A DNA stretch of 27,184 nucleotides. Source: a virus. The notes beneath the pieces are model-generated. The model was not told where the DNA came from, ran no database searches, and worked only from the letters and a program-made list of their open reading frames with translations. Positions 12,413 through 16,786 of this stretch are shown here, in pieces. The position numbers and the translations under genes were made by a program. The stretch lies in the IMG/VR virus record IMGVR_UViG_3300028948_000734. One strand, 5' to 3'. Within the stretch, counting starts at the first letter, position 1, and every line of letters begins with the position of its first letter.

Positions 12413-12545
12413 GGGGGTGATGCCGAATGGGTAGGCCCGGTTCTCCGAGAATGCAGGTTAGCCTTGCAAGGGTTCAATTCCCTAAGTTCTTGATCAATAA
12501 AGCCGCGCGAAAGCAGAGTTAGTTCGATCCTAACCGCCCCTACCA
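12413..12545 (+). ncRNA. Unusual 133-nt tRNA-like RNA with a canonical acceptor stem, D-arm, T-arm and encoded CCA, but about 55 extra nt between the D-arm and T-arm
   Basis: 5' GGGGGTG (12413-19) pairs with 3' CGCCCCT (12535-41), 7/7 including two G·U pairs. D-arm GCC-GAATGGGTA-GGC. Perfect T-arm GTTAG-TTCGATC-CTAAC (12518-34), discriminator A, then CCA (12543-45) and a T-run. No canonical anticodon arm could be folded by eye. The interior carries a copy of the HNH-associated repeat core (GCCCGGTTCTCCGA). Confidence 0.4.
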
Positions 12546-13330
12546 TTTTTCCTATCATATTCATCTACTAATTTAACTAAATCATCATAGCTTATTGATG
12601 ATTTAGTGTTCTTTTTATTATTTTCTGCCCAAAGCATTAATTCACAGTTCATAACATGTGTTATATAATATGGGTCATAATTATTTCTTATAGCTTCATT
12701 TACACTTACCTTATGGTCTCTGGTATATCCATTTGGATTATCTTTAGATCTAAAGCCAACCTTCTTTAAACTATCAAGATCAAATAAATTTGGGTATTTA
12801 AAAACATTAATTGAAAACCAATATCGAGCTCTACCATTGTGACTATATAAATGTGAACAATCATTACAATATTTTATTTGTCGTTGTTCGGTGAAGATTT
12901 TATTGCAATGTTTACAGGTTAGGTTATATGTACTGGATTTTATTGTAATTTTTTTTATTTTATTGTTGTTATATCTTTCTTGCACAAGTTGAGACCTATG
13001 TTGATTTAGGCATGTACTGGAACAATATTTGTGCTTATTTGATTTGGATATGTTTTGACAAAATAAGCACGTTCTTGTTACTGTTACTTTTCTTTTTATA
13101 TAAACTTGATTATTTAAAGTTGCCGAACAAGACTTCGAACAAAACTTTCGTTGATGTCTATTTAGCTTAGTACCACATTGCAAGCAATTTGTTTCTCTAT
13201 GATGCTTCGTCTTGTATATAGAGCTACAAGAAAATGTGCAAAACTTTTTAGCTTTATAGTGCGCCGATTTAACAACAAAATCAGTTGAACAATTGATGCA
13301 TTTTTTTATGTATGGATATTTCTTTATCAT
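12530..13330 (-). CDS. HNH homing-type endonuclease with four N-terminal zinc-finger repeats (CxxC…CSxxC)
   Basis: Repeated 'C(I/L)xC…(K)(F/Y)C(S/T)xxC' units ×4. The C-terminal HNH core reads 'GYTRDHKVSVNEA…NCELMLWAENNKKN' (DH…N…N). GGAG lies upstream of the ATG (ggagaatgatATG). The 3' end overlaps the 3' end of the tRNA-like gene by 16 nt on the opposite strand. Confidence 0.7.
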   Translation of the reverse strand: MIKKYPYIKKCINCSTDFVVKSAHYKAKKFCTFSCSSIYKTKHHRETNCLQCGTKLNRHQRKFCSKSCSATLNNQVYIKRKVTVTRTCLFCQNISKSNKHKYCSSTCLNQHRSQLVQERYNNNKIKKITIKSSTYNLTCKHCNKIFTEQRQIKYCNDCSHLYSHNGRARYWFSINVFKYPNLFDLDSLKKVGFRSKDNPNGYTRDHKVSVNEAIRNNYDPYYITHVMNCELMLWAENNKKNTKSSISYDDLVKLVDEYDRKNGRGG

Positions 13331-13335
13331 ATCAT

Positions 13336-13414
13336 TCTCCGAATAAATAAAAGGTGGGACAGCCCGGATCTCCGAACTGGGTTTTTGATTGCGCGAACAA
13401 TCAAATCACTACAG
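13336..13414. repeat. Conserved repeat A, about 79 nt (copy 1 of the HNH-upstream element)
   Basis: TCTCCGAATAAATAAA(a/t)(g/t)GTGGGACAGCCCGGATCTCCGAACTGGGTTTTTGATTG…CAATCAAATCAC is about 90% identical to 16708..16786. It contains the inverted repeat TTTGATTG/CAATCAAA and lies immediately 5' of the HNH start on the minus strand. Confidence 0.7.
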
Positions 13415-13423
13415 TATTTATCG

Positions 13424-13452
13424 TTGACGAATCAACGTGTTTAGCATATATT
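13424..13452 (+). promoter_or_regulatory. Sigma70-like promoter (TTGACG, 17-nt spacer, TATATT) upstream of the tRNA-Met-like gene
   Basis: -35 at 13424-29 and -10 at 13447-52; the tRNA-like 5' end is 8 nt downstream. Confidence 0.5.
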
Positions 13453-13460
13453 TTAAATAT

Positions 13461-13535
13461 GCGCTGGTAGCTCAAAGGAGGAGCAGTCCCCTCATAAGGG
13501 AAAGGTTGAGATATCGTAATTCTCCCGGCGCACCA
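13461..13535 (+). tRNA. tRNA-Met-like (anticodon CAT; could be initiator, elongator or Ile-lysidine), non-canonical T-loop
   Basis: Acceptor GCGCTGG/CCGGCGC (7/7, one U·G). D-arm GCTC-AAAGGAG-GAGC. Anticodon stem TCCC/GGGA with loop CTCATAA (CAT at 34-36). T-stem GAGA/TCTC with the atypical loop ATCGTAA. Discriminator A, encoded CCA, T-run. Promoter upstream. Confidence 0.45.
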
Positions 13536-13552
13536 TTTTTCTAAGGATGCTT

Positions 13553-13762
13553 ATGTTAAAAGTCAGCACACGATATCAGAGACTGCGAATCAAGCTTGCC
13601 GAGATTTATCAAGCTATCAGTGACTTGCAAGATGAATGTAAGCATCCTAACCTTTCCAGAGTTGCAAAATCAAACACTGGAAACTATGATCCCAGTGCCG
13701 ATTGTTATTGGTATGAATGTAAGTGTCCAGACTGTGGCAAATTCTGGCATGAGGATCAATGA
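13553..13762 (+). CDS. Small zinc-ribbon protein (about 69 aa)
   Basis: The second ATG (13553) is 5 nt from AAGGA. Cys cluster 'ECKHP…DCYWYECKCPDCGKFW'. The stop overlaps the next start (ATGA). Confidence 0.5.
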   Translation: MLKVSTRYQRLRIKLAEIYQAISDLQDECKHPNLSRVAKSNTGNYDPSADCYWYECKCPDCGKFWHEDQ

Positions 13763-15246: not shown

Positions 15247-15542
15247 AAGTTAATAACAGGGAATTTGCCTATCACGCATACATGTACCATAGTAACTATA
15301 CGTCCGAAGTCTATTTCTGGCTTATAAACAAATTTGGTCTACCGTATGGACCCCCTGACAAGAATTTGCCAGATAAAACAAAATATAAGCCATTAAACCC
15401 AGATTCAAATTGGATTTTTGGCGGAATGTTGATGAGTAAGAAAAAAGGAACAGAAACTGTGATGAGATTGTGTTTTGCCAGACCAGAGGATTTCACATTA
15501 TTTACATTATCGTGGCCTATTGTTGATTTTAACACGGCCTAA
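15243..15542 (+). CDS. Hypothetical protein (99 aa)
   Basis: ATGA overlap with the upstream methyltransferase stop (translational coupling). Confidence 0.4.
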   Translation: MKVNNREFAYHAYMYHSNYTSEVYFWLINKFGLPYGPPDKNLPDKTKYKPLNPDSNWIFGGMLMSKKKGTETVMRLCFARPEDFTLFTLSWPIVDFNTA

Positions 15543-15578
15543 CAACAGTATACTAACGTTTAACCGATAGGAGATAAT

Positions 15579-15767
15579 ATGTTTAATGACAGTAAAGATT
15601 CTCAGCAAGAATCAGACGTTTACAATGGTTGGAGAGTGACCAACAGTGGTGCAACAAATACCACAGCCAAACAAATCCTCACCGATACCACCGGATCATG
15701 GTCCATTAGATGGAATCTTGGTAGGATTAGAATCTATCAACAAAATAGTAATCAGGATGCATTTTAA
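15579..15767 (+). CDS. Hypothetical small protein (62 aa)
   Basis: AGGAG 7 nt upstream of the ATG. Confidence 0.4.
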   Translation: MFNDSKDSQQESDVYNGWRVTNSGATNTTAKQILTDTTGSWSIRWNLGRIRIYQQNSNQDAF

Positions 15768-15810
15768 CCTTGCTTTTTAAATAGTAGAGTGTTATAGTAT
15801 ATATGTATTT

Positions 15811-15896
15811 GCCCCCTTGATGGAATGGAAGACATACGAGACTTAAAATCTCGAGACCTTAAGGTCGTGCCCGTTCGAGTCGGGCAGGGGGTACCA
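15811..15896 (+). tRNA. tRNA-Leu (anticodon TAA), class II with a long variable arm
   Basis: Acceptor GCCCCCT/AGGGGGT (G1·U72). Anticodon stem CGAGA/TCTCG with loop CTTAAAA (TAA at 34-36). Variable hairpin GACC-TTAA-GGTC. T-arm GCCCG-TTCGAGT-CGGGC. Discriminator A and encoded CCA (15894-96). Confidence 0.85.
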
Positions 15897-15897
15897 A

Positions 15898-16701
15898 TTA
15901 AATTTTTATTTTGTTTAGAATTTTCCATTCACACCCTGATTGGTAAATTCTGCTTTTAGCTAGACCTTTGCTTTTAGACCATTTTGTAATACAGGTCGTT
16001 TCTTCGATAACGTTGGTTATTATATTTTTTAATGTCCATTTGTATACTGGTTTAGAAGGTGCTTTAACCTTTGTAATTGCTAGACTGGTCGTTATTAAAT
16101 GATTTGTTTCCCATTTGTCTATACGTTCGAGTAATTCAGCCAATAACATCCATGATTCCGAACCTTTTGATGCATTTTCAGATTGTAATAACCACTGACA
16201 ATTTGCCGGATGAGAAATTACATCCGGATTAATTTTATTACGCCATCCAAATTCTCGGCTAATAATATGATCACGAGATACTCCGGTTGGATTTTTTATT
16301 GGATGCCATAATCCATATTTGTTTAGTAAATCAAATCCTTTAACATTCTCAAAATGATACGGTCTGAATTTAAATTTACATTTATTTTTATATGTAATTT
16401 TTTCGTCTGAAATAGTAGGCCATTTATCTTTTAATGTCAATTGTAATGTATTTTTTTGTTTAATTCTTGATTCTTTTGACCTATGTAAATTATTAAAAAT
16501 AGCAGCACAAGATTTTGTGCAAAACTTTTTTCGTTCACTATTAAGTGAGATTTTACAATTCACACAATGAGTATGATATTCACATTTTCTTCTATATCTA
16601 GTTGAACAGATATGGGAACAAAATTTTCGATTTTTGTCCCTAGCAATAACTGAAAAATTGTTCTTACAGTGTGTACATTCTTTATTATATAAAGTAGCCA
16701 T
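15898..16701 (-). CDS. HNH homing-type endonuclease with N-terminal zinc-finger repeats (paralog of 12530..13330)
   Basis: The start ATG at 16701 (MATLYNKECTHC…) is preferred, because it sits just downstream of repeat B and has GGAG 7 nt upstream, mirroring the other HNH gene. 'C(T/V)xC…KFC(S/T)xxC' repeats. HNH core 'VSRDHIISREFG…NCQWLLQSENASKG'. The 3' end lies 1 nt from the tRNA-Leu 3' end on the opposite strand. Confidence 0.7.
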   Translation of the reverse strand: MATLYNKECTHCKNNFSVIARDKNRKFCSHICSTRYRRKCEYHTHCVNCKISLNSERKKFCTKSCAAIFNNLHRSKESRIKQKNTLQLTLKDKWPTISDEKITYKNKCKFKFRPYHFENVKGFDLLNKYGLWHPIKNPTGVSRDHIISREFGWRNKINPDVISHPANCQWLLQSENASKGSESWMLLAELLERIDKWETNHLITTSLAITKVKAPSKPVYKWTLKNIITNVIEETTCITKWSKSKGLAKSRIYQSGCEWKILNKIKI

Positions 16702-16707
16702 GCTTGA

Positions 16708-16786
16708 TCTCCGAATAAATAAATTGTGGGACAGCCCGGATCTCCGAACTGGGTTTTTGATTGTTGGCGCAATCAAATCACCACAT
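16708..16786. repeat. Conserved repeat B, about 79 nt (copy 2 of the HNH-upstream element)
   Basis: About 90% identical to 13336..13414 (see above); its 3' part continues into a module shared with repeat C. Confidence 0.7.

Follow-up and report, generated by a model that had tools for sequence, protein, structure and literature searches.

A conserved structured repeat ahead of free-standing phage nuclease genes: a candidate portable control module

Two nuclease genes with a common upstream repeat

The window analysed here, an entire JGI contig of 27,184 bp (IMG/VR virus record IMGVR_UViG_3300028948_000734), carries two putative homing endonuclease genes (HEGs), A and B, each preceded by a copy of a conserved structured repeat, which is the subject of this work. 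From 6934 to about 18740 everything lies on the plus strand except for these two open reading frames (ORFs), found on the minus strand at 12530–13330 (gene A, 266 aa) and 15898–16701 (gene B, 267 aa). They are paralogues (27% identity, E=8e-23) and, as a sequence-only reading of this DNA had noticed, both run up to the 3' end of a plus-strand tRNA or tRNA-like gene: gene B, whose stop codon begins at 15898, is separated by a gap of 1 nt from its left neighbour, tRNA-Leu(taa) (15811–15896, plus strand), while gene A overlaps the CCA end (12545) of a 133-nt tRNA-like gene by 16 nt. Both genes are intergenic, i.e. they sit between complete tRNA or protein genes and not inside an intron or intein.

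The classification of A and B as HNH-like nucleases is plausible, but not established, the HNH label coming from motifs only. The N-terminal repeats of the proteins resemble FCS and YacG zinc ribbons; in protein A the FCS-like ribbons are followed by a C-terminal DH..N..N (HNH-like) domain. The residues D205, H206, H225, N228, C229, N237 and K240 are invariant across 30 homologues and fall on a strand-strand-helix unit in the AlphaFold (AF2) model of nuclease A (predicted local distance difference test score, pLDDT, 91), while the fold search yielded weak matches to Cas9 HNH and DUF1524. Both proteins belong to phrog_23051, a family of unknown function (9e-34 for protein A, which has 123 homologues), and match phrog_1271, annotated as HNH, weakly (1e-8 to 1e-9). 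Neither A nor B reaches any of the HNH models of Pfam and NCBIfam, and the PDB profile search returned zinc fingers only.

The conserved repeat already noticed before each nuclease gene was found to comprise 86 nt in either copy (13336–13421 and 16708–16793), with 90% identity. Its 26-nt core, GGGACAGCCCGGATCTCCGAACTGGG, occurs exactly twice in the window versus 0 expected in shuffles, and the 8-bp inverted repeat described earlier, TTTGATTG/CAATCAAA, is present in both copies. Structured element A (13354–13412) consists of a closing helix P1 (13354–57/13409–12), a junction GAC, a middle hairpin (13361–67/13377–83) with the loop ATCTCCGAA (13368–76, plus-strand register) and a hairpin P3 (13384–91/13398–405); element B (16726–16784) has P1 at 16726–29/16781–84, the middle hairpin at 16733–39/16749–55 with its loop at 16740–48, and P3 at 16756–63/16770–77. 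The ribosome-binding site (RBS) of gene A (13336–13343, minus strand) is the complement of TCTCCGAA, i.e. UUCGGAGA, and represents copy 'c' of a heptamer that recurs in the element; that of gene B (16706–16715) is the complement of GATCTCCGAA. Each element is flanked by two boxes. The plus-strand ATAAATA box (13343–13349 for A, 4 nt before P1; 16715–16721 for B) is promoter-like for the plus strand or may form the 3' arm of a helix P0 in the HEG leader, while the inverted box (TATTTAT on the plus strand) lies at 13415–13421 for A (2 nt beyond P1), where it is a candidate minus-strand promoter of gene A, and at 16787–16793 for B.

Relatives of the element and their nuclease genes

Relatives of the element were sought by exact and degenerate pattern scans of IMG/VR and JGI metagenome contigs, made blind to genes, and by a covariance model, R1, which was built from the first 11 copies and then searched over the fetched loci (referred to below by L numbers). 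Together these searches identified 20 distinct full copies in viral and metagenome contigs, and therefore the repeat is not a local duplication; one degenerate solo copy was found in addition. All 20 full copies are located directly upstream of, and antisense to, an ORF resembling an endonuclease, so the link to nuclease genes is exclusive. The linked genes encode members of the window's family (L001, L003, L006, L019, L020, L023), short PF01844 HNH proteins (L011, L030), a NUMOD3-bearing protein (L039), a zinc ribbon plus PF01844 (L022), DUF559 proteins (L016 and the second copy of L003), a SegE-type GIY-YIG protein (L038) and a DUF7487 protein (L046), with matches to the PF01844, PF04480 and PF19835 profiles. 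Thus, the element is common to nuclease genes of at least five unrelated families. Homologous nuclease genes without the element also occur, in L007, in L002 and as the second gene of L001. Several of the contigs that host element copies span 165–543 kb, and the phages concerned form a clade of large, probably huge, phages.

In the window itself, element A scores 74.9 bits and element B 80.3 bits with the covariance model, and a filter-free search found only these two copies. The model did not detect a degenerate solo remnant at 17176–17215 (plus strand), in which GACAGCC is joined to the 3' arm of P3, followed by the 3' arm of P1 and a diverged box, with no nuclease gene; the segment 17185–17251 is 88% identical to 16768–16834 of the element B region. 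L019/L021 have a comparable solo remnant, placed between two tRNAs. At 2825–2862 the window has TATAAATA and, 12 nt on, a hairpin CTAGGA-CAGC-TCCTAG with GGACAGC and CTCC, which is faintly like the element core and is likewise not detected by the covariance model.

Surroundings rich in tRNA genes are general: at about 11 of the 16 loci that could be assessed, a tRNA or tRNA-like gene is present within 300 nt. Approximately half of the cassettes terminate at, or within, the 3' end of a tRNA (gaps from -16 to +44 nt), while the others abut the stop codon of a protein gene, with a gap of 1 nt in L006. Several cassettes are accompanied by tRNA fragments: 3' halves on the right and, in L007 and L001, also a matching 5' acceptor strand on the left (L019, right of the element; L030, after 10312; L001, 5440–5475 with GCGGGTG at about 4511; L007, 3960–4000 and 4665–4700). 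It appears that some cassettes inserted within tRNA genes, in certain cases along with an entire tRNA gene. The neighbours of nuclease cassettes in related contigs also include an IS605 OrfB/TnpB-like gene and TilS-like (PF01171) genes (L003 1586–2734, L003 4782–5414, L006 2291–3247); the latter would fit a phage-encoded tRNA-Ile2(CAU).

Fold, covariation and a second copy of the ribosome-binding site

RNAalifold applied to the 59–60-nt core yielded the closing helix P1 (4 bp), the middle hairpin and the 8-bp hairpin P3, with 98–99% of cells paired and compensatory changes in 9–11 pairs; none of 500 shuffles reached the covariation observed in the 21 distinct sequences. In P3 the sequence changes completely between relatives, yet covariation extends to all 8 pairs. 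Both P1 and P3 hold equally well for either strand, and the middle hairpin pairs at about 98% on each strand, each time in a register of its own. On the tRNA strand it forms AGCCYRG/CYGGGUU (7 bp) around a 9–11-nt loop with CUCC plus three bases, a register comprising 343 Watson-Crick, 48 G.U and 8 mismatched cells, compared with 55 mismatches when the opposite strand is read in that register. On the nuclease strand the preferred hairpin is CRG-YYY-GG / CC-RGG-CUG (8 bp) with an AGNN tetraloop, present in 18 of the 20 full leaders; 98.1% of this register is paired and UA/CG covariation is seen at pair 42–53, while its mirrored counterpart reaches only 70.7%. The sequence is thus compatible with folding on both strands, and an interpretation as a plus-strand RNA only, initially drawn from the G.U asymmetry, was withdrawn because the nuclease strand has a different, equally well-paired register.

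No Rfam family accounts for the element: a search of the whole window, together with a permissive search of 12380–13470, found none, and the best hit, PsrR1, reaches 18.9 bits where the gathering score is 42. Inspection of the junctions (GAC, none, TYA) by eye revealed no hammerhead-type ribozyme core. A tRNA remnant, suggested by TGGG..GCCCGG..CTCCGA and by ACCA near the 3' end, was rejected, as the element has no T-loop or D-arm features and the likeness is specific to the window.

Within the middle hairpin, the heptamer containing the Shine-Dalgarno sequence of the nuclease gene (complement CTCC plus three bases) recurs, as YYYGGAG on the nuclease strand and CUCCRRR on the tRNA strand. The tRNA-strand loop is therefore complementary to the nuclease RBS over 7–11 nt. 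The triplet next to CTCC is identical in loop and RBS in 16 of the 20 copies, in spite of its occurring in six variants (GAA, AAG, AGA, GAG, ATA, TGA), i.e. the RBS and its copy in the element covary. Duplexes between loop and RBS have a mean energy of -12.7 kcal/mol when cognate, compared with -8.4 for non-cognate combinations and -4.2 when the loop is shuffled.

The boxes are conserved as well: TAAATA is kept 4–5 nt before P1 on the tRNA strand in 18 of the 20 relatives, and the inverted TATTTAT follows P1 by 2–3 nt. All 12 occurrences of ATAAATA in the window are intergenic, three of them 6–14 nt before tRNA 5' ends, which suggests that ATAAATA may be a T4-late-like promoter box in this phage. 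The ATAAATA/TATAAATA sites in the window include those at 1408, 2825, 6820 (minus), 6931 (minus), 7536, 12396, 25482 and 26470, some of them just before ORF starts.

Cassette boundaries and the tRNA-like gene

Locus L001 shares synteny with the window. The terminator and TATAAATA are the same in both, and L001 has homologues of the promoter, of the tRNA-like gene, of the downstream promoter and of a downstream 68/71-aa ORF. There, the CCA of the tRNA-like gene is followed by T and then by TACAGTATTTATCGTTGA, an 18-mer identical to 13410–13427 of the window, with neither nuclease nor element in between. A direct reading of both sequences shows that the window has 864 extra bases (12546–13409), which comprise gene A with its RBS, then the box, and finally the element as far as base one of the P1 3' arm. 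Since L001 thus represents an empty site with the same tRNA-like gene, cassette A corresponds to about 12546–13409, and comparison with a related genome lacking the nuclease, the route to the boundaries proposed in the sequence-only reading, has indeed supplied them. In L030, in turn, the counterpart of this tRNA-like gene is followed by a PF01844-type nuclease and the element. Taken together, the empty site and the other nuclease family at the same position argue that gene and element are gained or lost together and that the gene can differ behind the same element, as expected if nuclease gene and repeat form one unit. A search by tblastn for the remnant of a replaced nuclease gene in L011 found none. 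The tRNA beside cassette B has also been exchanged, since the TAA-anticodon tRNA next to the orthologous nuclease gene (53% identity between the L001 protein and that of gene B) is a 77-nt tRNA with a short variable arm in L001 (2114–2190) and the 86-nt long-arm tRNA-Leu in the window (15811–15896).

The 133-nt gene itself (12413–12545, plus strand) has a cloverleaf whose anticodon loop CT-C...AT-AA (CAU) is interrupted by an insert of about 51 nt. Its minimum free energy (MFE) fold shows the acceptor, D, anticodon and T arms plus the branched insert after CTC; neither ARAGORN nor Rfam called it. Homologous inserts occupy the same position in L001 (1356–1482), L030, L022 and L011, with outer arms that differ in sequence and stay paired. 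The insert, of about 50 nt, has a closing stem, a small hairpin and a T-arm-like GGGTTCRAnTCCC hairpin, followed by ATAA; a group I intron was rejected, as the insert is too short. It had been proposed that insertion of the nuclease gene accounts for the aberrant structure of this RNA. This idea is not supported, because the four relatives have such a tRNA with or without a neighbouring nuclease gene, and in L001 none is adjacent. A third copy of the repeat core had also been reported within the 133-nt RNA. The match is real, since GCCCGGWTCTCCGA occurs at 12435–12448 and in both repeats (3 matches versus 0.08 expected), but the bracketing of gene A by direct copies does not amount to a target-site duplication: the 'copy' on the left is a stretch of the tRNA-like gene itself, and the extended match is not found in the relatives. 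Of the 14-nt match, the portion TCTCCGAG, which covers the anticodon loop and the start of the insert, is conserved in all these tRNA-like genes for reasons of their own, while the rest is not common to the relatives.

How the element may act

There is good support for interpreting the repeat as a structured control module that is portable and belongs to free-standing nuclease cassettes, and the element is most likely a portable switch that keeps the nucleases in check. The suspected 'shared promoter or 5'UTR' is thereby supported and sharpened to a covarying structured element which is tied to the nuclease RBS and common to several unrelated families. As to its mode of action, we favour, with a probability of roughly 0.45, a 5' control module of putative HEG cassettes that would work by sense/antisense RNA pairing at the RBS. 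A cassette consists of a nuclease ORF on the strand opposite to its neighbours, the RBS, an ATAAATA box, the folded element of 59–60 nt and a second, inverted ATAAATA box; such units sit in tRNA-rich intergenic DNA, where the ORF reaches, or runs into, the 3' end of the gene before it. We infer that the two face-to-face boxes may serve as promoters, from which the element would be transcribed both ways. The RNA of the tRNA strand would present CUCCRRR in its 9–11-nt hairpin loop, and the pairing of this loop with the RBS of the nuclease mRNA would block translation, while the duplicate RBS copy in the mRNA leader would be tucked into the 8-bp hairpin. Nuclease output would thereby be throttled, as IS10 RNA-OUT does for its transposase. 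This model is preferred because the anti-RBS loop covaries with the RBS, because CUCC is invariant and because both strands stay paired.

Several observations weigh against it. The plus-strand register has little covariation of its own, as only one pair changes in both partners, and the high level of pairing is due to invariant bases and to the tolerance of wobbles; the covariation of the middle hairpin is better on the nuclease-sense strand, which also folds more stably (z from -2.5 to -3.5, compared with -1.1 to -2.1). The triplet in loop and RBS agrees at only two of three bases in three copies and fails to match in one (L003 8480–8541). The putative small RNA lacks an obvious terminator downstream. 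ATAAATA occurs no more often in the window than base composition predicts (12 seen, about 16 expected), and the right-hand box is present in the L001 empty site too. Finally, in T4 the precedents for control of HEGs involve hairpins acting in cis (PMC2988022).

Some of these points lend weight to a close rival, to which we would assign a lower, though still appreciable, chance: the element could have no role other than that of a 5' untranslated leader on the nuclease mRNA, with the P3 hairpin and the 8-bp hairpin with its decoy RBS, and with no antisense RNA. Such a leader would set mRNA stability or translation, be it through ribosome standby, through competition of two identical heptamers for the same CCRGG partner, or through a P0 helix formed between the boxes on read-through transcripts only, as in T4. 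Given the better covariation and stability of the nuclease-sense hairpin, such a leader could suffice; this explanation also accommodates the nearly all-purine triplets on the plus strand, as needed to pair with GG(R), and the nuclease-strand box upstream of the leader; located 2–3 nt before P1, that box could remove only the P0/P1 arm from late transcripts. In T4, I-TevI, segB and mobE use leader hairpins together with late promoters (PMC2988022). On the other hand, the true RBS GGAG is unpaired in most leader MFE folds, and therefore the element is not a sequestering hairpin of the T4 type; CCRGG would pair with the true RBS over 5 bp only, wobbles included; and a leader acting in cis leaves unexplained both the invariant GGAG of the decoy copy and the 98% pairing of the plus strand.

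It is considerably less probable that the element functions at the DNA level, i.e. that the core and direct repeats are bound by the zinc-ribbon nucleases (as autorepressors similar to I-TevI) or by a phage factor, or serve as a homing or recombination landmark for nuclease-gene copying. The GGGACAGCC core is nearly invariant among the copies, most of the linked nucleases have FCS-like zinc-ribbon repeats, some cassettes have tRNA fragments beside them, and the window element resembles the neighbouring tRNA-like gene at 17 of 21 positions, which recalls the operator/homing-site pair of I-TevI. However, this last likeness is absent in L001, L030 and L022, and the same element precedes the nucleases of L011, L030 and L039, which have no zinc ribbons. 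The covariation of P3 despite its complete change of sequence argues for a nucleic-acid fold and not for a sequence-specific site. Least probable of all is a role as plus-strand punctuation (a terminator, a processing site or the 5' leader of downstream plus-strand genes, beside which nuclease genes merely land), for although TTTTT follows the middle hairpin in the window, the PsrR1 terminator region shows a weak likeness (E=1) and plus-strand promoters come after each copy, the U run is only 2–5 nt in relatives and the scan for intrinsic terminators (a G+C-rich hairpin plus a U tract) does not list the element, the downstream genes vary by locus while the nuclease gene is constant, the element is missing from the L001 empty site, and the covariation with the nuclease RBS would have no explanation.

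Comparison with known systems

Control by a sense/antisense pair has counterparts in IS10 RNA-IN/RNA-OUT and in RNA I/RNA II of par (pAD1), where face-to-face transcription runs over the 5' end of a mobile-element gene and an antisense stem-loop pairs with the RBS; in par, direct repeats in the DNA provide the complementarity between the oppositely transcribed RNAs. The element shares with them a predicted antisense loop complementary to its target RBS over 7–11 nt and covarying with it in the 16 copies mentioned above. It differs in that the putative target is a homing endonuclease and not a transposase or toxin, in that a separate repeat, situated beyond the overlap, gives the loop its complementarity to the RBS, and in that the system is known from sequence and promoter-like boxes only.

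HNH nicking endonucleases are found in the tRNA region of phage T5. In the tRNA gene cluster of T4 there is a free-standing GIY-YIG HEG, segB (PMC2330249, PMC13096335). As in that cluster, free-standing nuclease genes lie among phage tRNA genes and their presence or absence differs between related phages, but here the genes are antisense to the tRNAs, their stop codons abut tRNA 3' ends, and one structured element is shared by the upstream regions of nuclease genes from several families. HEG control in T4 and relatives (I-TevI/II/III, segB, Aeh1 mobE) combines an RBS-sequestering hairpin with a late promoter, while the hairpin of seg43(25) sits just upstream of a free RBS (reviewed in PMC2988022). 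The resemblance lies in a stable leader structure with a TATAAATA-like box immediately upstream of the HEG and in the likely purpose, limiting nuclease synthesis. In contrast, the hairpin described here holds a second copy of the RBS and not the RBS itself, a single motif is conserved across nuclease families instead of a gene-specific hairpin, and the entire leader lies downstream of the box.

An antisense RNA associated with a phage HEG has a precedent in cyanophage S-PM2, whose CfrI is antisense to the HEG F-CphI, according to the mention of Millard et al. 2010 in PMC10690425. For the present element an RNA of this kind is predicted only. CfrI is reportedly a long antisense transcript that covers the ORF and links it to psbA, unlike the compact conserved motif with an anti-RBS loop considered here. 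A literature search, outside which the supplements of the csRNA catalogue PMC10690425 lay, found no description of such a motif.

Genomic setting

ARAGORN calls five tRNAs in the window. To the right of cassette A, and outside it, lies a plus-strand sigma-70-like promoter (TTGACG-17-TATATT, 13424–13452) followed by tRNA-Met (13461–13535), and to the right of element B there is the plus-strand promoter of a MazG-like gene (TTGACA-17-TAAATT, 16807–16835). Between or beside the two cassettes are genes for a Lar-like restriction-alleviation protein (13759–14265), an FkbM-type methyltransferase (14500–15246) and the MazG-like pyrophosphatase (16852–17166). Megablast of 12300–17300 against GenBank phages found no close relatives. 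An ORF at 9862–12324 encodes an 820-aa vault-protein-like product with a major-vault-protein shoulder and repeat domains (Pfam 1e-21), whose sole GenBank phage matches, with about 40% protein identity, are uncultured phages of 462–735 kb.

Implications

Free-standing homing endonucleases shape the evolution of phage genomes, and containment of their toxicity is known for a few T4 genes, each with a hairpin of its own. If the interpretation of the repeat as a control module is correct, regulation itself would be a portable part of selfish nuclease cassettes. The R1 covariance model would offer a sequence handle for finding such cassettes in metagenomes, and the module would provide a simple pairing rule between loop and RBS, as well as fixed cassette boundaries with which to study the tRNA clusters of huge phages as hot spots for nuclease genes. 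More tentatively, and with somewhat less confidence than we place in sense/antisense pairing as such, one compact RNA module, read both ways, might be a general silencer of HEGs in huge phages, its loop matched to the RBS of the neighbouring nuclease and unrelated nuclease families being exchanged behind it. If so, these phages would possess a shared 'docking and muzzling' unit for selfish nucleases, one without a described counterpart.

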